A stretch of DNA of 52,812 nucleotides from contig CANRME010000002.1 in the NCBI GenBank assembly GCA_947631655.1, forward strand, positions 1 to 52,812. Direction: 5' to 3'. Below the pieces are notes generated by a model. It saw nothing but the letters and a program-made list of their open reading frames with translations, was not told where the DNA came from and did not search any database. This stretch comes from an uncultured Bacilli bacterium (GTDB lineage: Bacteria; Bacillota_I; Bacilli_A; RF39; UBA660). Shown here one piece after another: positions 1,569 to 52,812 of the stretch. Numbering within the stretch: position 1 is the first letter of the stretch; each line of letters opens with the position of its first letter. The position numbers and the translations under genes are program-made.

Positions 1569-1940
1569 ATGAACGGTACATATTACCAAAATCCAACTTT
1601 TCCTAGTAATGAAGCACCAGGAAATACGAATAATTATGATGTAAATATGGCTCCAAATGAAAATAATAATTTATTAATGAATGGAGAACAAAGTTATATT
1701 GAAAATATTTTAAGACTTAATAAAGGAAAAGTAGTTAGAGCTTATGTAAGTTTTCCGGATGCGACGGAATGGCGTAATAAAATTTTTGAAGGAGTTATTC
1801 AAGAAGCAGGAAGAGATCATTTAATATTAAGTAATCCTAATAATGGAGAATGGTATTTAATTTTAATGATTTATTTAAACTATGTTACTTTTAATGAAAG
1901 AATAGCTTATAGTCATGACTTTTCAGAAAAGACATTTTAA
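1569..1940 (+). CDS. gerQ: Spore coat protein GerQ (YwdL)-like
   Basis: The C-terminal block SYIENILRLNKGKVVRAYVSFPD...WRNKIFEGVIQEAGRDHLILSNPNNGEWYLILMIYLNYVTF matches the conserved GerQ core as I remember it. RBS GGAGGTG lies upstream. Confidence 0.65.
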   Translation: MNGTYYQNPTFPSNEAPGNTNNYDVNMAPNENNNLLMNGEQSYIENILRLNKGKVVRAYVSFPDATEWRNKIFEGVIQEAGRDHLILSNPNNGEWYLILMIYLNYVTFNERIAYSHDFSEKTF

Positions 1941-1954
1941 GTCTTTTTCTTTTA
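1927..1954 (+). terminator. Weak rho-independent terminator after gerQ
   Basis: Stem aaaagac/gtctttt with loop attttaa, followed by a T-rich run. Confidence 0.35.
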
Positions 1955-1986
1955 AAAATTTATGTTATAATTAGATAGGTGATAGT

Positions 1987-2532
1987 ATGGGATGGATATA
2001 TGCTTTATTAGTTATTATTTTAATAGGTAGTGCATTAGGACTTGTTTATGTTGTTTGTTTTAATAAATTAAAAGAAAATGATATTAGAATTAAAGAAGCA
2101 GAAAGTATAATTGATGAATCTTTAAGAAATAAATATGACTTAATGATGCGTTTAGATTTGTTATTGCAAAAATATTTTGATAAAGATAAACCTTATTTTA
2201 AAGAGTTAAAAGAACTTAAAGGTCAAGAATTTACTTCCTTTACTTTAGATAGAAAGATAGAAGAAGCCGCTTTAATAGCTTTAAAGGTTATTAATGATGA
2301 AGATAATATTTTAAAAGAAGCTGATTATATAAATATTAGTAATGATATTAAAAAAGCTGATGAAAAATTATCAGCAGCTAAAAGTTTTTATAATAAATAT
2401 ACAACCAAGTATAATGCTTTAGTAAATCATTTCCCATCAAGTATTGTAGCAAAAGTTATTCATTTAGAAGAAAAAAGATACTATGATGGTAAAAATTTAA
2501 ATGACGATATTTACGAAGACTTTAAATTATAA
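1987..2532 (+). CDS. LemA family membrane protein
   Basis: Single N-terminal TM (IYALLVIILIGSALGLVYVV), then a helical domain. The C-terminal FYNKYTTKYNALVNHFPSSIVAKV is like the LemA signature (FYN..V..YN..I..FP.NI.A). Confidence 0.7.
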   Translation: MGWIYALLVIILIGSALGLVYVVCFNKLKENDIRIKEAESIIDESLRNKYDLMMRLDLLLQKYFDKDKPYFKELKELKGQEFTSFTLDRKIEEAALIALKVINDEDNILKEADYINISNDIKKADEKLSAAKSFYNKYTTKYNALVNHFPSSIVAKVIHLEEKRYYDGKNLNDDIYEDFKL

Positions 2533-3186
2533 TCTCCAATCTATTGGAGATATTTTTTTGCTTATTAAAAAGTTATTAGTTTTCGAAAAAGGCTTACTAC
2601 CAAAGAAACCATTACGAGCAGAGAAGGGACTAGGATGCGGACTTTCAATTACATAATGAATAGGATTAGTAATATATTCTTTCTTACTACGAGCAAAAGC
2701 GCCCCACAAAATAAATACTACTGGGGTATTTTTAGCATTTAATTTTTTAATAATATAATCAGTTAACAATTCCCAACCTAAACCTTTGTGAGAAGCGGGT
2801 TTATCTTTTTCAACAGTTAATACAGAGTTTAGAAGTAAGACTCCTTCTTTACCCCATTTGGTTAAATCGCCATATTGACAAGGAGGAATTCCTAAATCAT
2901 CTTCTAATTCTTTATAAATATTTTGTAATGAAGGAGGTATTTTTACCCCTTTTTGAACAGAGAAAGATAAACCGTGGGCCTCACCTACACCATGGTATGG
3001 GTCTTGTCCTACAATTACTACTTTAACATTATTATAAGGTGTTAATTTTAAAGCATTAAAAATATTTTCTTTAGCAGGAAAAATCGTTTTTTCATCATAC
3101 AATTTTAAAATCTTATTATAGAAGCTTTGAAAATACTTACTATTCCATATTACACTTAATTCATTATCCCAATCATTACCTATCAT
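2527..3186 (-). CDS. ung: Uracil-DNA glycosylase
   Basis: Family-1 UDG motifs GQDPYH, LLLNSVLTV and HPSPFSA. Confidence 0.93.
   Translation of the reverse strand: MIGNDWDNELSVIWNSKYFQSFYNKILKLYDEKTIFPAKENIFNALKLTPYNNVKVVIVGQDPYHGVGEAHGLSFSVQKGVKIPPSLQNIYKELEDDLGIPPCQYGDLTKWGKEGVLLLNSVLTVEKDKPASHKGLGWELLTDYIIKKLNAKNTPVVFILWGAFARSKKEYITNPIHYVIESPHPSPFSARNGFFGSKPFSKTNNFLISKKISPIDWRL
2533..2559 (+). terminator. Terminator of the LemA gene, embedded in the 3' coding end of convergent ung
   Basis: Stem tctcca/tggaga with loop atctat, then tattttttt. The same bases encode the last residues (SPIDWRL) of ung on the other strand. The two genes overlap convergently by 6 nt. Confidence 0.55.
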
Positions 3187-3195
3187 ATAAACCTC

Positions 3196-3630
3196 CTATT
3201 TATGATACGTTTCATTATTATTTATTTTAAAAGCGCGATATATTTGTTCTAGTAAAATTCCTCTAAATAACCCGTGAGGGAAAGTTAATTTGGAAAAAGA
3301 TAATTTAAGGTTAGAACGTTTCTTTACTTGTTCACCTAAACCATCACTTCCACCAATAACAAAGGCAATATTACTATTAGTTTGAAAAGTATTATCAAGT
3401 AAAGAAGCAAATTCTAAAGAACTATAAGTATTACCTTCAATGCACAAACTAATAACATAATCCGTAGGTTTAATAAGTTTTAGTAGAGAAGTTTCTTCTT
3501 TTTCTATACACTCATCTTTTATTTCGGTAATTTCTAACTTATGATACTTATTAATTCTTTTTTGATAATCATTAATTAAATCTGCTAAATATTGTTCTTT
3601 AATTTTACCAACACATAATATTTTTATCAT
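3196..3630 (-). CDS. rlmH: 23S rRNA (pseudouridine1915-N3)-methyltransferase RlmH
   Basis: SPOUT-type protein of ~145 aa. It has a GGSDGL loop and a C-terminal LSFSKLTFPHGLFRGILLEQIYRA. Its position after a YycJ-like gene matches Bacillus. Confidence 0.88.
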   Translation of the reverse strand: MIKILCVGKIKEQYLADLINDYQKRINKYHKLEITEIKDECIEKEETSLLKLIKPTDYVISLCIEGNTYSSLEFASLLDNTFQTNSNIAFVIGGSDGLGEQVKKRSNLKLSFSKLTFPHGLFRGILLEQIYRAFKINNNETYHK

Positions 3631-44876: not shown

Positions 44877-46223
44877 CTACTTTCCTAAACAGAAATTTTT
44901 AAATAATTCGTCGATTAATTCTTCCGAATAAGTAGCACCAATAATTTCCCCTAAAGCATTCCAAGCATTTTTAATATCTATTTCTGCTAAATCAATAGGT
45001 GTTTCATCATTTAAGGAAATAATACTATTATTAATATAATTAATCGCTTTTTCAACTAATGCTATTTGGCGCGCATTCGACATATAAGCTAAGTTTTTAC
45101 TTTCAATTTTACCTAAGTTAAAGATTTTTAATATTTCTTTTTTAAGGGCATTGATGCCATCTTCACTATTGGTATTTCCCTCAATATAAGATGGAAGATG
45201 TTCTAACTCTAACTTAGTTTGTAAATCATTTTTATTAACAAAGATGATATGAGTTAGATCTTTTATTTTTTCTAATAAATCTTTATCTTCTTTAGTTAAT
45301 TTTTCATTACTATTTAAAACTAAGATTACTAAGTCAGCTTTATTTATGGCTTCTAAACTTTTATCAACACCAATTTTTTCAACAACGTCAGTAGTGTTTC
45401 TAATACCAGCAGTATCAATGAAATTAAGTTTTATACCATCAATTACGATACTACCTTCCACTATATCACGCGTAGTTCCAGCGATGTTAGTAACAATGGC
45501 TTTATTTTCATTTAAGAAACGATTTAATAAACTAGATTTACCAACATTAGGACGGCCGACAATACAAATATTTAAACCATCTTTAATGATTTTAGAGGTT
45601 TTACTTTCTTTTAAAATAGTATTTAAATTTTCTTTTACTTCTTCTAATTTAGGTAATAAAGTTTTATGGGTTACTACTTCAACATCTTCATATTCAGGGT
45701 AGTCAATATTTACTTCAATATTAGATAAAAGATATGCTAATTTTTCTCTTTCATTAGTTATTAATTTAGATAAAGTACCAGTTACTTGGTTTATAGCCAT
45801 CTTACGAGCATTATCTGTATCAGCAGTGATTAGATCACTTACAGCTTCGCTTTCGACTAAATCGATACGTCCATTTAGGAAAGCTCTCTTAGTAAATTCA
45901 CCAGGTTCAGCAAGACGAGCACCAATAGTTAATAAAATTTCTAATATTTTATTAGTGATAGCAATACCACCATGGGTATTTATTTCAACGACATCTTCGG
46001 TAGTAAAAGTTTTAGGAGCACGCATTACAGATACTAATACTTCATCAATTATTTCATTTTTATATTTTATATAACCATAATGAATAGTATGAGATGGGAC
46101 TTTAGTTAAATCTTTAGTAAATATACTGCTTACTAAAGAAATAGCTTCTTTACCACTTAATCTAATTATGGCGATAGCACCTTCCCCTAAAGGTGTTGAT
46201 ATAGCACAAATTGTATCAGTCAT
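44877..46223 (-). CDS. mnmE: tRNA modification GTPase MnmE
   Basis: DTICAISTP N-terminus, G1 GRPNVGKSSLLN, DTAGIR, and the C-terminal FCLGK motif. Confidence 0.95.
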   Translation of the reverse strand: MTDTICAISTPLGEGAIAIIRLSGKEAISLVSSIFTKDLTKVPSHTIHYGYIKYKNEIIDEVLVSVMRAPKTFTTEDVVEINTHGGIAITNKILEILLTIGARLAEPGEFTKRAFLNGRIDLVESEAVSDLITADTDNARKMAINQVTGTLSKLITNEREKLAYLLSNIEVNIDYPEYEDVEVVTHKTLLPKLEEVKENLNTILKESKTSKIIKDGLNICIVGRPNVGKSSLLNRFLNENKAIVTNIAGTTRDIVEGSIVIDGIKLNFIDTAGIRNTTDVVEKIGVDKSLEAINKADLVILVLNSNEKLTKEDKDLLEKIKDLTHIIFVNKNDLQTKLELEHLPSYIEGNTNSEDGINALKKEILKIFNLGKIESKNLAYMSNARQIALVEKAINYINNSIISLNDETPIDLAEIDIKNAWNALGEIIGATYSEELIDELFKNFCLGK

Positions 46224-46473
46224 AGTAACCCTTCTTTCCGCTGTATTATAGCACGAAGTAAGAAAAGTTTAAAGATTAAATGAATAAAAAATGATGCTTC
46301 TTAAATACTTACCCTTTATTTAGTTTCTTCTTGCAAAATAATTACATAACAGCAAACCGATATTTATCATCAACTTTTTAATTTTTTTATAAAAAAAGAA
46401 TTAATGTTTTTTATTCAATAATTCTTTTAATATTTCTAATTTTAAATTCTTCATTTTTATTGCCGTTCTGTAA

Positions 46474-47058
46474 TTATCCGTTATTATTTTTTTCTTTATA
46501 TTCAATTCTACGACGACAGTATTTACATCTTCCTACATTGGAAGTTAACATATTATCAGCTCCACAATAAGGACAGTAAACAACGTGAGTATTTTTAGCT
46601 TTTTCGCGTTTTTCTTTCATAATTAGATCATTCTTTTCTGATATTTTAGCATTTTGTTGTTCTGATTCTTTTATATAATTTCTTATGCTACTATTTAATT
46701 TACTGCTTACTTTTGAAAAAATCATATTAAATATATAAGTAATTATAATAAATATAATTCCAACTGTTATTAATAATTTACTATAATTGAGTAGTTTAAA
46801 ATAAATATTTGATTCTATTATAGTAGATAAATAAGGAAAAGAAGAAATACTAATTTTAAAGATATTTAAAATATATTTAGATATTTCAGGTATTAATATA
46901 AGTATCCCACAACATAAAATAGTTATAGGGGTTGAATACTTTTTAGAACTAAATATGTAATATCTAAATAATATTAAACAGATTCCTAGGAAAGGAATAA
47001 AGTATAAAGTTAGTAGAATTACTGGAATACTACATAGTATTTTTAAAAATCTATTCAT
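46474..47058 (-). CDS. 4-TM membrane protein with C-terminal zinc ribbon (operon gene 4)
   Basis: Four hydrophobic segments, then a basic helix and CPYCGADNMLTSNVGRCKYCRR. The start lies 13 nt after the upstream stop. Confidence 0.6.
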   Translation of the reverse strand: MNRFLKILCSIPVILLTLYFIPFLGICLILFRYYIFSSKKYSTPITILCCGILILIPEISKYILNIFKISISSFPYLSTIIESNIYFKLLNYSKLLITVGIIFIIITYIFNMIFSKVSSKLNSSIRNYIKESEQQNAKISEKNDLIMKEKREKAKNTHVVYCPYCGADNMLTSNVGRCKYCRRRIEYKEKNNNG

Positions 47059-47071
47059 AAATTATTCCTTT

Positions 47072-49924
47072 CTATTTATTAAAGAATTTTAAATCTGATT
47101 CTAGCGATTCGCTAATTCTTATAGGTTGATTAGAACCTTTATAATAATCATTTGCTTTAGTAACACAAGTTTGTTTATTACACTTTAAATCAACATATCT
47201 TTTTTCTCCGGGGTAATTATTGTCATATACTCCAATATAATAATGATTAGCGTCTTTATTATCTTGTACTAAACTTATAGCATTTATTGCGTGATAACTA
47301 GAACCCCCATCAAATGCTGAAAAAATAACAGGAGCATCTTTATTATCTAATCTATTTTTTAATAGTTCAATAAATGCTGCTCTATTTAGTTTTTCTGATG
47401 ATTCTGTGCCAATAACGTTTCTTAACCATACCAAAAAATTTGACGAAGATGAGTAATTTCGAGTAACATCTTGCTTAATAAAACCGGCATAAATAGCATT
47501 TAATAGTTGTTTATCACTATTATCTATAACAGAACTGGTTTGCATTTTATCTTCATTTAATAGAACTTCTTCATAATCTTCATATTTAACTCCCCATTTT
47601 TCTACTTTAGTTTTATCATCTAAGGTAGACTTAAATACTGAAGTATCATACATACCTGAATTAGCTAACTCTTTTTTATATTTTTCAGCATATACCATTG
47701 TATTACCAGATAATGTCAGTAAATCTGATGGTGGAGTTTCATTAAAATACTCAAATCCAAATGTATATTTTAAATTATTTGTTTTTAATTTATAATCATA
47801 AAGATTCTTAAAATTAGCAAAATATGTATTGTTTAAATCATAAGCATAAGATTTGTTTTTATCGGCAGTTATCCTATCCGCACTTAAAGGTAATTTTTTT
47901 GTATAGTATAATTCAGCAATAGTAGCCATTCCATAACAATGGCCTTCCGCTGAAAGGTTTGTACCGTAATTATGAAATGAGAATCCATCACGGTTTACAA
48001 CAAATCCACTGTCAGATATTAACATCCCATCTACTTGTCCATCATTATCTAAATCTATTAAGTTATCATCTAATTCTGCACCAACATTTTCAAATAATTC
48101 AGTTAATCCGTTAACGTCACTTGAAGAATAAAACTTACAACCTGTTTTATTTGAAATAGTTGATAATTCTGTATTGGTAGCTCCGCTACCAAATCCGATA
48201 GAACATATTTTTACATTATCAGAATTAGCATTATCAATTATAGTTTGAGTTTTACTTTTTAATAATGAATCTTCTCCATCAGTTAATATTACAATAAATT
48301 TATTATCACTTTCCGCATTAAATTCCTTTATTCCTTTGAATAGAGCATTTACAATATTTGTACCTTCTACTTCTGTAATAAATTTTCCATTCATTCCACT
48401 TAAAGTGTTCTTTATTGATGAAGCATCTGTTCCTATTTTATTGGCACTAGCATAATCACTTCTAAATTCTGATAATCCTATTTGATAATTTTTTTGAGAT
48501 AATCTAGTAACTAAATCACTAGTTAATGTAAATCTTACTCCATCGGCATCATAACCTGGTAATGGAGAATTATCAAAAATAGTTCCCGTATACTCTTCTC
48601 CAGTTATCTCTTTATATTGCTCACTATTATACATACTCCATGAATTATCAAGGATAAACAATATTTGAGTTGTTGTTTTTGTTTTTACAATAGTTTTATC
48701 ACCTATAACATAATTTGAAAAATGTTTTAAAGTTGCTGATAAGGTATTGTTATCTTTATCAATAGTAGTTTCTATTTCTTCATATTCCGAATTTTCTTCA
48801 TTAAAGTAATATATAGATAAGTTATCTTCATTTAAAGAGTATTTTATTAAATCTTCATCGGTATATGATAATGTAACTAATGCTTTTTCAATTGTACCAG
48901 GAGTATAGAAAGAATATAAATTATCTATCATTCCTTTTTTATTGCTAATTTTTGTATTTGAATTTATTTCGGCTGTAGTACTAGCAATATTTCCTTTTCC
49001 AGAAATTGTAAGGTTTATATTATCAGTTGAATAACTATAGGATAAAGCTCTTTCGCCATCTTTTAGGCCATCTCCTTTGGAATCGATTTTTAATGGATCT
49101 AACTCTAATTCTATTTCATTATAATCATTTAATCCGTCGCCATCAGTATCTTCTTTATTAGGATCGGTTTTACTTGTAAACAATTCATAGTTATCGTCAA
49201 GTCCATCCATATCACTATCAAGTAGTTCAGGATTGGTATTATATTCTTTTTCTTGTTTATTAGTTAATCCATCAAAATCTATATCTTCATCGGAATCATA
49301 ATCTACTTTCATATCTAATGCTAATTCTTGGTGTTCGGTATTAGGATTTATTACTGTAAATTCCTTCTTAAGTGTTTTTAATTTGTATTTAACTTCAATA
49401 TTACACTTACCAAGAGAATCAGATACATCCCATAATATATCTAATCCGTTTCTTACATAATTTCCACATGTAGTTTTTATTTTTAGTTGGTCTAGTTTCT
49501 TTTCATTTGAAAAATTGATTCCTAAATCTAAATTACTTTGAGTGACATAGCTTAAATTTATTACTTCTTTGTCTTTATTCCAACTTAAGTTTTCGAACCC
49601 AATTATTTGGTCATAAATAAATACTACGATTACGATAGCAAGTAAGCTGCCAAGACTTATTAATAAATTCTTTTTATATTTTATTACAAATTCTTGAATT
49701 TTTGTAAGCAATGGTTTTATAAAATTTTGACTTTTGGTAGAAAGCATTTCTGTCATAGTTCCACTACTATTTGTAGGAACATTTAAGTTGCTTTCTTGAG
49801 CTATATTTGATTCATTAACTTGTGGTGTTGTTTGTTTGAATTGAAAATTTTTTAAATTAGTACCACAGTTTGAGCAAAACTCGGAATTTTCAGGTAATTT
49901 AGTACCACACTTTGGACAAAACAT
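47072..49924 (-). CDS. Zinc-ribbon-anchored surface protein with TSP3-type calcium-binding repeats and a vWA domain (operon gene 3)
   Basis: N-terminal CPKCGTKLPENSEFCSNCG and one TM. Dx(D/N)xDGxxDxxE repeats (DSDEDIDFDGLTNKQE, DSDMDGLDDNYE, DTDGDGLNDYNE). vWA MIDAS ILFILDNSWSM, plus later ILTDGED. A ~300-aa C-terminal domain is of unclear type. Confidence 0.7.
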   Translation of the reverse strand: MFCPKCGTKLPENSEFCSNCGTNLKNFQFKQTTPQVNESNIAQESNLNVPTNSSGTMTEMLSTKSQNFIKPLLTKIQEFVIKYKKNLLISLGSLLAIVIVVFIYDQIIGFENLSWNKDKEVINLSYVTQSNLDLGINFSNEKKLDQLKIKTTCGNYVRNGLDILWDVSDSLGKCNIEVKYKLKTLKKEFTVINPNTEHQELALDMKVDYDSDEDIDFDGLTNKQEKEYNTNPELLDSDMDGLDDNYELFTSKTDPNKEDTDGDGLNDYNEIELELDPLKIDSKGDGLKDGERALSYSYSTDNINLTISGKGNIASTTAEINSNTKISNKKGMIDNLYSFYTPGTIEKALVTLSYTDEDLIKYSLNEDNLSIYYFNEENSEYEEIETTIDKDNNTLSATLKHFSNYVIGDKTIVKTKTTTQILFILDNSWSMYNSEQYKEITGEEYTGTIFDNSPLPGYDADGVRFTLTSDLVTRLSQKNYQIGLSEFRSDYASANKIGTDASSIKNTLSGMNGKFITEVEGTNIVNALFKGIKEFNAESDNKFIVILTDGEDSLLKSKTQTIIDNANSDNVKICSIGFGSGATNTELSTISNKTGCKFYSSSDVNGLTELFENVGAELDDNLIDLDNDGQVDGMLISDSGFVVNRDGFSFHNYGTNLSAEGHCYGMATIAELYYTKKLPLSADRITADKNKSYAYDLNNTYFANFKNLYDYKLKTNNLKYTFGFEYFNETPPSDLLTLSGNTMVYAEKYKKELANSGMYDTSVFKSTLDDKTKVEKWGVKYEDYEEVLLNEDKMQTSSVIDNSDKQLLNAIYAGFIKQDVTRNYSSSSNFLVWLRNVIGTESSEKLNRAAFIELLKNRLDNKDAPVIFSAFDGGSSYHAINAISLVQDNKDANHYYIGVYDNNYPGEKRYVDLKCNKQTCVTKANDYYKGSNQPIRISESLESDLKFFNK

Positions 49925-49937
49925 AGTTTACCTCCTT

Positions 49938-51818
49938 TTATTTATATTCAAAAAACATTTTTCCCGTAGTATATGAATAGTATTTACTACCTACTTCAAA
50001 ATGTTGTTCTCTTAAATAAGGTTGTTCATTAATAGTTACTATTTCTTTACCACTTTTAAAGTCATATAATGTGTATTTTCCATCTTTTTCAATAAATATG
50101 TATTTTGTTCCGTTAACTGTCTTAGTTTCAAACCATTTAGTTGTATATAGTTTTTTACCATTTATTTCAAAAATTGTTCTTGTTCCATCAGCATTATCAC
50201 CATAATAAATATTATTAGTTCCTTCTATATTATAAATTTTATATGCTGATCTATTATTAACATAATAGTCAGAAACTTTTTCCCCCTTTAAATTAATAAC
50301 ATAAAAATTCTCTTCATCATCACTTACAACTGCATACCCATTTTCATCGAAAGGATAAGCAAGTTCATAAGCTTTATCATCTAATCTAGTTCCATCACTT
50401 TTTATATAGATTTTTTTCCTATCATAATCCGTACAAGACCTTAATAAATATATTCCTTGTACAGCAAAGTTTTCATTACTATCCTTAAAACAATGGTAAT
50501 TTGTTTTAAACTGATTGTTTACATATACGTCTACGCCTATATCGGCATCTCTAAGATAGTTATTAGTATCAATATAAGCTTCATCACTTGTCAATTCTAG
50601 AATAGCATTACCTTGGTCATTAAGAATTTGTTTTTTTATACCATCATTTAAAACCAAATTATCTCCTTCATAGTGTAAGGCATCCATTGAATTACTTGTT
50701 TTAGTGAATTGAATCTTACCATTTTTAACAAATTTATAATTATTTCCTGAACTTAATATAAATTCATTTCGGTCATTTTCATTTATTTCGTCTATACTAT
50801 AACTATTTTCATCAGAAAACGATAATACTAATTTAGATTTTGTAATATCAAAATAGTAATTAATATTATTATAGAATAAATGAGTATATTCATCATATTG
50901 AGATGTTGATGGAACACTTCCATTATCCAAATCATCAAATGATAATAAGACATTTCCTTTGTAATCATAGAGAATATATTTTTCTGTGTCTTTATTTTGA
51001 ATTATACAATATTCCTCATCATGTGTTGTAACAAAATCTAAGCTTTCTCCTTTAATAACCAACTTTTTTGTAGTTGTATAAATGTTATCATCATAATTTT
51101 CGTCAACACAGTTATAAAATGGCCCTTCATCAAAAAGGTATTTGCATTCTCCAAAATCGAATAACATCTTACCATCACTTTTAATAACACCACTTTGCTC
51201 TTCTAAATTAGTAACTCTTGCTGTTCCGTTAACGAAACTAGAAACACTTTTAAAATTAACATTGGCTAATTGTTCACCATCTATATTAAATATCGTATAT
51301 TCCCCTGCTTTATTATAGACAGAGAAAGAATCTGAAGATGGCAATATTGAATGATCATTATTTTTGTTGGTTTTATTTGAGTTTCCTTTAATAAAGAAAA
51401 ATACTCCTACAACTAATCCAATAATTATTATAATTATAGCTATTATTAATACGTTTTTATTTTTACTTGGTTTGGTATTATTTATAGGATTTTCATAAAC
51501 AGGTTTGGAAATTGGGGGCGTTGATTGAAATTGAGGTGAGGAAGTTTGAGGGCCCATTTCATTTGAAGACTCTGGTTCACCCATTTGACTATTTATTGGT
51601 TGTTGCATTGGGGCACTTTGATTTTGAAAATAACTTGGTTGTTCTATAGGTTCATTAGAATTTATATTGTTATTTCCTAATTGTTGATTGAATTCGTTGG
51701 AATTAGGTATAGGATTTGGTTGCATAGTAGGTGCATCATTAGTAACTGGCTCTGTAGGCTGATTATTTGATAATTGGGAGTTTTCACTCCCAATATTATT
51801 ATTTAAATTGTTATTCAT
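49938..51818 (-). CDS. Single-pass membrane protein with N/Q/P-rich cytoplasmic tail and WG-repeat-like extracellular domain (operon gene 2)
   Basis: The first ~115 aa are low-complexity (N, Q, P). The TM is IAIIIIIIGLVVGVFFFI. Repeated ~35-aa units of the form F.NG.A.V......G.I...G follow (for example FVNGTARVTNLEEQSGVIKSDGKMLFDF and PFDENGYAVVSDDEENFYVINLKGEKV). Confidence 0.55.
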   Translation of the reverse strand: MNNNLNNNIGSENSQLSNNQPTEPVTNDAPTMQPNPIPNSNEFNQQLGNNNINSNEPIEQPSYFQNQSAPMQQPINSQMGEPESSNEMGPQTSSPQFQSTPPISKPVYENPINNTKPSKNKNVLIIAIIIIIIGLVVGVFFFIKGNSNKTNKNNDHSILPSSDSFSVYNKAGEYTIFNIDGEQLANVNFKSVSSFVNGTARVTNLEEQSGVIKSDGKMLFDFGECKYLFDEGPFYNCVDENYDDNIYTTTKKLVIKGESLDFVTTHDEEYCIIQNKDTEKYILYDYKGNVLLSFDDLDNGSVPSTSQYDEYTHLFYNNINYYFDITKSKLVLSFSDENSYSIDEINENDRNEFILSSGNNYKFVKNGKIQFTKTSNSMDALHYEGDNLVLNDGIKKQILNDQGNAILELTSDEAYIDTNNYLRDADIGVDVYVNNQFKTNYHCFKDSNENFAVQGIYLLRSCTDYDRKKIYIKSDGTRLDDKAYELAYPFDENGYAVVSDDEENFYVINLKGEKVSDYYVNNRSAYKIYNIEGTNNIYYGDNADGTRTIFEINGKKLYTTKWFETKTVNGTKYIFIEKDGKYTLYDFKSGKEIVTINEQPYLREQHFEVGSKYYSYTTGKMFFEYK

Positions 51819-52729
51819 TATTTAAACATATCCAAAATATTATCAAGTCCTCCAGTTACAGAACTTGTAAATAACTTAATAAATGCAAAGTATCCAACAA
51901 CTGCTAATACACTAAAGCATACTAAGTTAAAGTATATTTTGATATCTCCATCTAATTTTAATTCGTTATTAATTAATTCATAGAATATTAATAATGTATA
52001 AGCTGAACCTACAACCATAAATATAACACTTAATGGAGCCCATACCAAACTTCCAATGGGTGCTAAAATCATTACTCCAACTACCATAGGAATTAAAGAT
52101 GTAGCTGATATTGATAACATTTTAATAAAATTAGTTTGTTTTTTAATAATTAAACTTCCTAAATAGAATACTAGAGCCAGTGCTACTATAATAACTGCAT
52201 ATATTAAAAAGTTTTTTCCTATTAATTCAACCCATTTAATATTTTTTAAATTTTCCCATTTCCAAGTAGTAGTTAAACCTGATGTCCAACTATAATCTGT
52301 TACTCTTACAGTAGTAATTATTGTTTTTATCATATTAACTATAGTCATAATAGCTGCAATTATTACACTTAAAATAATTGATGTTTTAGTATCGTTTAAT
52401 TTATTTTCCTCTTCTTTAAAACATTTTAAAGGTTTTAATAATATTGCAACCATATACATTAAATAATTTAATGAAATTGTAGCAGTATTTGTTGTTACTG
52501 GAACTGTTTGAGCTGACATTTGCATTGTAGGTTGAACTGTTGATTGAGTTGGTTGAGCAACTTGAACTGGTTGTTGAATATTTTGTGATGGTTGAGTTGG
52601 CACACTTGATTGTTCGTTTATCGGAACAGCTGGTGTACTAGATTGTTCTACACCACCTAACCTTGTTCCACATTTTATACAAAATGAAGAACCATCAATA
52701 TTTTCTGCTCCACAATTTGGACATTTCAT
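51818..52729 (-). CDS. Zinc-ribbon plus Yip1-like multi-pass membrane protein (operon gene 1)
   Basis: MKCPNCGAENIDGSSFCIKCGTRL, then a Q/P/T/V-rich linker and five hydrophobic segments in a Yip1/DUF1282-like arrangement. RBS GAGGAGG. Its stop overlaps the next start (TAATG). Confidence 0.6.
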   Translation of the reverse strand: MKCPNCGAENIDGSSFCIKCGTRLGGVEQSSTPAVPINEQSSVPTQPSQNIQQPVQVAQPTQSTVQPTMQMSAQTVPVTTNTATISLNYLMYMVAILLKPLKCFKEEENKLNDTKTSIILSVIIAAIMTIVNMIKTIITTVRVTDYSWTSGLTTTWKWENLKNIKWVELIGKNFLIYAVIIVALALVFYLGSLIIKKQTNFIKMLSISATSLIPMVVGVMILAPIGSLVWAPLSVIFMVVGSAYTLLIFYELINNELKLDGDIKIYFNLVCFSVLAVVGYFAFIKLFTSSVTGGLDNILDMFK

Positions 52730-52758
52730 TTTATTTTCCTCCTCGTATAATAGTTTTT

Positions 52759-52790
52759 GTAAGAGATATTTATGTCTCTTACAAATTATA
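52759..52790 (-). promoter_or_regulatory. Promoter -10 element plus 8-bp perfect inverted repeat over the predicted start site of the zinc-ribbon operon
   Basis: On the minus strand, TATAAT (52790-52785) is followed after 2 nt by GTAAGAGA, an 8-nt spacer and TCTCTTAC (52782-52759). The RBS GAGGAGG lies further downstream. Confidence 0.45.
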
Positions 52791-52812
52791 CTTTTCTAGT
52801 TATTGTTTAAAA

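Follow-up and report, generated by a model that had tools for sequence, protein, structure and literature searches.

A modular surface-protein cassette with Cys4 ribbons and its SPFH/double-ribbon neighbours in small-genome gut Bacilli

We examined a four-gene operon at 46474-52729 in the DNA of an uncultured Bacilli bacterium; the window (52,812 nucleotides, nt) is the whole of contig C2 of a metagenome-assembled genome (MAG) of 1.23 Mb, in 126 contigs, with 64% completeness and 27% G+C. The genes are called g1 to g4 in order of transcription and lie on the minus strand, as do all window features given below. They correspond to open reading frames of 303 amino acids (aa; g1, 51818-52729), 626 aa (g2, 49938-51818), 950 aa (g3, 47072-49924) and 194 aa (g4, 46474-47058). 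Together they represent one version of a modular membrane/surface-protein cassette of small-genome gut Bacilli, which in many relatives stands behind a gene pair encoding an SPFH protein and a membrane protein with two Cys4 zinc ribbons (the double-ribbon protein). In the explanation that we favour, and to which we give about an even chance, the cassette products would be surface proteins attached by cytoplasmic ribbons to a scaffold that resembles Bacillus subtilis YdjI/YdjG and works without PspA, with g3 as a metal-dependent binder and probable protease and g2 as a propeller-like binder.

An earlier note on this DNA had described four tightly packed genes, and the reading frames and junctions confirmed this. 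The g1 and g2 genes overlap in a shared TAATG, while 13-nt gaps separate g2 from g3 (TAA-AAGGAGGTAAACT-ATG, with AAGGAGG) and g3 from g4 (TAG-AAAGGAATAATTT-ATG, with AAAGGA).

Cassette content and the upstream gene pair

We found at least 328 homologues of g3 (identity 59-68%), none of which has been named. We annotated 28 species-representative g3 loci from gut MAGs of rabbit, goat, mouse, chicken and Hadza people with hidden Markov models of the families, and counted co-occurrence in the 21 loci that had enough flanking sequence. The g1 gene accompanied g3 in 11 of the 21 loci, a WG-repeat gene in 13 and g4 in 13; eight loci contained all three partners and three loci contained none of them. 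The genes that the earlier note had treated as a four-gene operon do recur together, as parts of a modular cassette with other ribbon-tagged members. Two kinds of membrane protein with a C-terminal ribbon also recurred, one of them with four transmembrane (TM) segments, as did a lipoprotein, a 126-aa protein and a TM-anchored protein that consists of EF-Tu domains 2 and 3. The g4 gene preceded g3 in three species-representative loci (L025, L034 and L039, of which L034 is on the same contig of genome G024 as L011).

The SPFH gene and the double-ribbon gene each accompanied g3 in 13 of the 21 loci, upstream of the cassette and with the SPFH gene first. The gap between the double-ribbon gene and g1 was -4 to +5 nt in 10 out of 11 loci, which indicates translational coupling, and the two genes overlap in G024. 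The SPFH protein combines a Band_7_1 domain (30 bits in a relative and 29.2 bits in the present genome, cut-off 24) with a C-terminal SHOCT domain. The double-ribbon protein (about 500 aa) has two Cys4 ribbons, a globular region and two C-terminal TM segments; its Zn_Ribbon_TF match is sub-threshold, and one NCBI record names a relative 'TFIIB-type zinc ribbon-containing protein'. A divergent XRE-type (HTH_3) regulator with C-terminal CxxC pairs precedes the pair in 8 of the 28 loci and on contig C71 of the present genome. On that contig a gene for a 425-aa TM protein separates the regulator from the pair, and the contig ends 48 nt past the double-ribbon gene.

With at least 4766 matches, the double-ribbon family far exceeds the g3 family (at least 328). 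Among 25 genomes of the family of this bacterium, the scaffold pair (scored by close orthologues of the double-ribbon gene) was present in five and full-length g3 in two, both counts including the present genome. The content downstream of the pair varies, with other ribbon proteins in genome G018 and nothing in G015. Because the double-ribbon family is far larger and the downstream content varies, we read the arrangement as a core pair with swappable clients, and the data support a conserved core pair with exchangeable ribbon-tagged partners. In the present genome itself, only five credible proteins have both a Cys4 ribbon and a TM segment, and four of the five are the double-ribbon protein, g1, g3 and g4.

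Several observations concern individual genomes. Within the family, g3 occurs in just one further genome, G024, where the genes are divided between contigs C30 and C33. The SPFH gene, the double-ribbon gene, g1 and a g2-like gene form a block at the end of their contig, and the G024 g3 lacks the entire thrombospondin type-3 (TSP3) block, as a precise 63-residue absence. In the same-order genome G025 (C1:5137-6286), the double-ribbon gene is split, has three in-frame stops and is probably a pseudogene. On C71 (locus L048), an AbiD-family abortive-infection gene (341-1210; PADLOC E-value 7e-51) adjoins the regulator, and the 425-aa TM-anchored protein (1919-3196), between the regulator and the SPFH gene, is lacking in the cassettes of relatives. 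EF-Tu paralogues that have an N/Q-rich tail and are anchored in the membrane by one TM segment occur at L035:13100-15281 and also at L012, L015, L036 and L041. One type has EF-Tu domains 2 and 3 after the TM segment (about 303-312 aa), while the matches of a 411-aa protein at L015/L035, which belong to one MAG, are to the GTPase domain and domain 3 of EF-Tu. Translation-factor domains are unusual at such a site and in such a topology; paralogues of this kind were not found in the present genome.

Ribbons and ectodomains of the four products

Conserved Cys4 ribbons are present in g1, g3 and g4, in agreement with the earlier note, which had placed ribbons in three of the four products. The g1 protein consists of a CX2CX10CX2C ribbon (52658-52726), a P/Q/T-rich linker and a Yip1-family multi-pass membrane domain (51905-52444), as defined by Pfam, conservation and TM segments. 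Both domains exceeded their Pfam cut-offs: Zn_Ribbon_1 (PF13240) with 36.4 bits (cut-off 25) and Yip1 (PF04893) with 31.0 bits (cut-off 28.6; residues 96-275). The same ribbon family was detected in g3 with 34.5 bits (cut-off 25). The g4 ribbon (46507-46581) differs from this N-terminal type, as it is C-terminal (CPYCG..CKYC) and has weak Pfam matches; it follows three or four hydrophobic segments (46720-47022) and a charged helix, according to Pfam, conservation and hydrophobicity. The description of g4 as a four-TM protein is thus less secure, since three segments, and not four, were clearly hydrophobic. The ribbon cysteines were kept in every homologue that covered them (18/18 for g1, 19/19 for g4 and 30-31 of 30-31 for g3). 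The three ribbons are predicted to lie on the cytoplasmic side of the TM segments, and their motifs predict zinc binding.

The exact CX2CX10CX2C motif with which g1 and g3 begin, followed by TM segments, is shared with Llmg_0524 and Llmg_0526 of Lactococcus lactis, where it was shown to chelate zinc and where the proteins affect cell-wall integrity (PMC4628341). TcaA of Staphylococcus aureus has been discussed in the same context of zinc membrane proteins with this motif (PMC10328498). The ectodomains of those proteins are, however, unrelated to those of g1 and g3, and they have not been reported beside an SPFH pair. Two candidate relationships of g4 were rejected: with a four-TM ribbon protein (c8) as a paralogue, because the alignment was confined to the ribbon, and with a 191-aa gene near the L013 cluster as a homologue, which showed 18% identity and no ribbon.

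The g3 protein begins with its ribbon (49853-49921) and one TM segment (49613-49669), followed by a beta-rich module, three TSP3-type DxDxDG repeats (49046-49306), a second beta module, a VWA domain with an intact metal ion-dependent adhesion site (MIDAS; 48089-48664) and a C-terminal domain of predicted papain-like fold with Cys663, His878 and Asp901 (47075-48067). These parts were assigned by Pfam, NCBIfam, motifs, conservation and an AlphaFold2 model. The TSP3 and vWA/MIDAS assignments of the earlier note stand for the VWA domain, which scored 47.1 bits in Pfam and whose MIDAS residues (D426, S428, S430, T522 and D549, as DxSxS...T...D) are invariant in 18 sequences. For the repeats, the three DxDxDGL motifs are in place (residues 214, 236 and 259), but TSP3_bac (PF18884) reached just 18.1 bits, below the cut-off of 25. 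PF18884 is a precomputed match in many g3 homologues, and the 63-residue block is wholly missing in some. Residues 207-293 align to the repeat region of CglD (E-value 1.6e-8) and the VWA domain to BatA (E-value 1.1e-7), both in NCBIfam. Like Myxococcus CglD and BatA-type VWA proteins, g3 has calcium-type DxDxDG repeats and an intact MIDAS; it scores far under the equivalog cut-offs (33 against 400 bits) and differs in its anchoring, partners and C-terminal domain. Three extracellular cysteine pairs are invariant among the homologues, which fits an extracytoplasmic location of the region.

The C-terminal domain, which the earlier account of g3 had left out, is the best conserved part of the protein (residues 620-950). 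It had no Pfam matches, and a search of its profile against PDB sequences gave nothing significant. H662-C663, H878 and D901-N902 are invariant, and the triad is kept in 29-32 homologues. In the AlphaFold2 model (pLDDT 86, pTM 0.84), Cys663 sits at the N-terminal end of a helix, His878 begins a strand and Asp901 comes directly after the strand that follows. The best 11 Foldseek matches of the model in the PDB were all Mac/IdeS-type papain-fold cysteine proteases (T-Mac of Treponema denticola, IdeS, Mac-1 and IdeC), with a probability of 0.85-0.98 for ten of them and 0.51 for the eleventh. These proteases share with the g3 model the cysteine at a helix N-terminus, the histidine opening a strand and the Asp/Asn past the next strand; the spacing from histidine to the acidic residue is also similar (23-24 residues in g3, 22 in IdeS and 24 in T-Mac; PMC11833123). 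A large helical insert makes the spacing from cysteine to histidine longer in g3 (215 residues) than in IdeS (168) or T-Mac (149). The g3 domain further differs in having no sequence similarity detectable by the PDB profile search, in its fusion to VWA, TSP3 and a membrane anchor, and in its host, an uncultured gut commensal and not a pathogen. On the basis of the model, it is probably a Mac/IdeS-type cysteine protease or a transglutaminase-like domain.

When 1.84 billion representative proteins were searched with a profile, the C-terminal module was found in 382 clusters at 50% identity. Distant relatives keep the TSP3, VWA and C-terminal domains and have the ribbon/TM anchor swapped for SLH, dockerin, Listeria-Bacteroides repeats or DUF285. 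Since SLH and dockerin anchors carry the module, it is an extracellular, cell-surface unit, and the external display of the ectodomain claimed in the earlier note agrees with these anchors, the Listeria-Bacteroides repeats included.

The g2 protein starts with a cytoplasmic tail rich in N, Q, P and S (51474-51818), which leads through one TM segment (51396-51452) to an all-beta ectodomain of probable WG-type blade repeats (49941-51383), according to Pfam, hhalign and AlphaFold2. The 115-aa tail is as the earlier note had it, with N, Q, P and S making up 61% of residues 1-115. The WG repeats were borne out in part: g2 itself matches WG_beta_rep (PF14903) at a sub-threshold 16.3 bits (E-value 0.01; cut-off 25.6), whereas a member of the sister family of about 520 aa, which occupies the g2 slot in many relatives, matches it at 38.8 bits (E-value 9.4e-10). 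The two families align over their full length in a profile-profile comparison (hhalign probability 99.2%, E-value 7e-20). The modelled ectodomain consists entirely of beta-blades (pLDDT 83.5), and Foldseek found local beta-propeller matches with E-values of about 1e-12, yet TM-scores of just 0.2-0.25. The WG assignment of g2 therefore has indirect support only, through the sister family and the all-beta model. The g2 gene is also the fastest-evolving of the four, with 27-33% identity to its orthologues, compared with 49-64% for g3 and 36-58% for g1 and g4, as expected if an exposed binding surface were under diversifying pressure. In a g2 homologue at L040:8036-9970, an N-terminal Cys4 ribbon (MICPKCN...CSVCG) replaces part of the N/Q-rich tail, so that gain or loss of ribbons is possible in the g2 family too.

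Proposed scaffold docking and alternative explanations

The earlier note knew of no characterised system of this composition. The pair upstream of the cassette in 13 of the 21 loci does resemble a described one, and the ribbon-tagged surface proteins behind it have no counterpart in B. subtilis. In that species YdjG has two zinc ribbons, an NTF2-like domain and a TM region, and YdjI is a Band-7 protein (Ravi et al., PMC11237479); YdjG and YdjH recruit the SPFH protein YdjI, which in turn recruits PspA (PMC8581546, PMC9239133, PMC13713150). The Band_7_1 SPFH protein of our loci is YdjI-like and the double-ribbon membrane protein has a YdjG-like architecture. In contrast to pspA-ydjGHI (pspA-samGHI), the SPFH gene comes first here, its product has SHOCT and not a zinc ribbon at the C-terminus, the TPM-domain protein YdjH and PspA are missing, and ribbon-tagged surface proteins trail the pair. 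PspA/IM30 (PF04012) was not found in the present genome (64% complete) or in 25 relatives (21 of them at least 90% complete), while the control search was positive in nine genomes, including B. subtilis. No TPM_phosphatase match was found among the cassette proteins scanned.

We propose from the gene arrangement that the cassette is, in relatives, normally co-transcribed with and translationally coupled to a scaffold pair that works without PspA. The ribbons would serve as cytoplasmic handles that hold g1, g3 and g4 at an SPFH/double-ribbon platform, and the ectodomains would thereby be clustered in one membrane patch. There, g3 would bind a ligand through its MIDAS and probably cleave a protein substrate, the propeller-like domain of g2 would be a binding partner, and g1 and g4 would act as membrane adaptors. 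A broader idea, which we offer tentatively, is that the PF13240-type Cys4 ribbon is an address tag docking its bearer onto the PspA-less YdjI/YdjG-type SPFH platform, and that gut Bacilli thus assemble exchangeable surface sets in one patch. If so, the set described here would be a propeller-like binder and a VWA protein bearing a Mac/IdeS-like protease.

SPFH scaffolds are universal and their clients mostly unknown, and YdjGHI/SamGHI of B. subtilis has only recently been tied to PspA recruitment and to development. Few unexplained modules at the N-terminus of Bacillota membrane proteins are as common as the short Cys4 ribbon of PF13240 type. A lineage that has retained the SPFH/double-ribbon pair without PspA, with a swappable ribbon-tagged set directly behind the pair, provides concrete candidates for SPFH clients and a testable role for this very common module, and the usual place of the cassette hints at what the scaffold organises. 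The TSP3-VWA-Cys/His module of g3 is uncharacterised and may be a surface protease of gut commensals.

Several points weigh against attachment to the scaffold. We infer the docking of ribbons on the SPFH platform from gene order and enrichment, and the assembly through zinc ribbons that the earlier note suggested is likewise putative; the double-ribbon protein is likened to YdjG by its architecture, and both YdjH and PspA are absent. In the present genome the scaffold pair is on C71, separate from the g1 contig, and a repeat of at least 75 nt intervenes, which leaves their adjacency unproven; g1 also has its own leader there. In G024 the g4-g3 pair directly follows tdk, on a separate contig from the block with the SPFH gene, the double-ribbon gene, g1 and the g2-like gene. 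Three loci carry g3 with no cassette partner at all, and from these loci and the split in G024 it follows that g3 can function apart from the scaffold. As for catalysis, the protease-like fold match is weak (E-values 0.008-0.03, TM-scores 0.2-0.25, about 110 aligned residues).

Some of these points would suit an autonomous surface adhesin/protease operon, in which the ribbons are stabilising or topogenic anchors as in TcaA or Llmg_0524 and the SPFH neighbourhood reflects shared regulation or an insertion hot spot. We regard this as possible, if somewhat doubtful. It would account for the g1 leader with its Shine-Dalgarno (SD) sequence, hairpin and TATAAT box, for the eight of 21 loci in which g3 lacks the scaffold pair and the three in which it stands alone, for the g4-g3 pair after tdk and for the same TSP3-VWA-protease-like module on SLH or dockerin anchors in other bacteria, and it agrees with the protein-stability role proposed for the L. 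lactis ribbon (PMC4628341). It sits less well with the tight coupling of the double-ribbon gene to g1 (10/11 loci), with the membership of four of the five ribbon-and-TM proteins of this genome in the scaffold pair or the cassette, and with the recurrence of different ribbon-tagged proteins behind the same pair.

By analogy with YdjGHI/SamGHI, the ectodomains could also sense wall or membrane perturbation or a ligand, and the ribbons relay this to the SPFH protein or the XRE-type regulator. The divergent regulator with its CxxC pairs (8/28 loci and C71), the influence of SamGHI on the transcriptional state of B. subtilis (PMC13713150) and the palindrome overlapping the g1 leader speak for such a module of envelope-stress sensing. 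We nevertheless think it improbable, as kinases, sigma/anti-sigma factors and other transducers are all absent, as one typically meets VWA, TSP3 and protease-like domains in effectors and adhesins and not in sensors, and as the palindrome belongs to a longer duplicated leader, a copy of which stands before thyA. A role as an anti-phage or surface-exclusion system, in which a patchy accessory cassette would prevent phage adsorption or set off abortive infection, is very unlikely in our judgement. The patchy spread of the cassette in the family (full-length g3 in 2/25 genomes and the pair in 5/25, the present one included), its variable content, the AbiD gene beside the regulator on C71 and the fast evolution of g2 (27-33% identity) would be in keeping with it. 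However, PADLOC gave no credible match for g1-g4 or the scaffold pair (the only two, weak and below 1e-3, were to ribbon or low-complexity stretches), domains of nuclease, NTPase or toxin type are absent, and the cassettes of relatives have no AbiD gene.

Contig break, g1 leader and the mnmE interval

Between g1 and the end of the window there are 83 nt on the upstream side of the gene. The same break recurs in five further assemblies of the strain, which shows 0 differences from the window over 6256 nt, and the contig with the double-ribbon gene likewise breaks at the same place in those assemblies. The leader and possible promoter region of g1 (52738-52812) contains an SD sequence (GAGGAGG), a hairpin and a TATAAT box, and is an exact repeat of at least 75 nt, 100% identical to the end of contig C51 (8965-9039, L061). 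There, the copy precedes an unrelated operon of a 248-aa gene, thyA, folA and a tmk-like gene. The contigs stop within the sequence shared with C51 (75/77 nt in here and 55 nt in for other samples), and the break upstream of g1 is attributed to this exact repeat, which replaced low coverage or AT-richness as its cause. We found no suffix-prefix overlap between C71 and the g1 contig, and no other contig end continues the repeat. The repeat was not found in the same-genus genomes G001 and G002.

The extended hairpin or palindrome (GTATAAT-TTGTAAGAGA ... TCTCTTACAA-ATTATAC; 52745-52791) includes the TATAAT box. The hairpin has a predicted stability of -15.3 kcal/mol (z -4.57), which was reached by 0 of 200 shuffles. 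It has no U-tract after it on the operon strand and is terminator-like solely on the opposite strand. An invertible promoter was rejected, as the orientation beside g1 was the same in 6/6 assemblies and there was no evidence of inversion; the two copies may nonetheless be placed divergently. Rfam gave no families over 46000-52812 at E-values up to 0.1, and a promoter scan was uninformative in this AT-rich DNA (54 found, 51 expected).

Downstream of g4, a 250-nt spacer is followed by mnmE and mnmG. The spacer side of mnmE carries a promoter-like box (TTTAAA-17-TATAAT with an extended -10 TG; 46245-46273), which is conserved in the same-genus genome G001; the cassette therefore sits in a variable interval upstream of this putative promoter of mnmE. 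In the present genome rpmH-rnpA-yidC-jag lies on contig C77 and is followed by a convergent gene fragment. The earlier note had placed the operon in the position between this block and mnmE, and five relatives (a same-genus genome and four of other genera) bear this out, as they have rpmH-rnpA-yidC-jag, then 0-1 small variable gene, then mnmE. The gene between jag and mnmE in G001 was tried as a link to C77 and rejected, being thymidylate-kinase-like and without a match to the C77 end. Neither mnmE nor mnmG was near the cassette in any of about 30 related loci. The position beside mnmE is real, species-specific and without functional meaning. The jag-mnmE interval of the relatives (L055-L059; G001 and G003-G006) contained a 237-aa thymidylate-kinase-like gene on the opposite strand, a gene of 290 aa, 178 aa or 169 aa, or none, and as the small gene differs in each genus, the interval is a recurrent insertion or variable slot.

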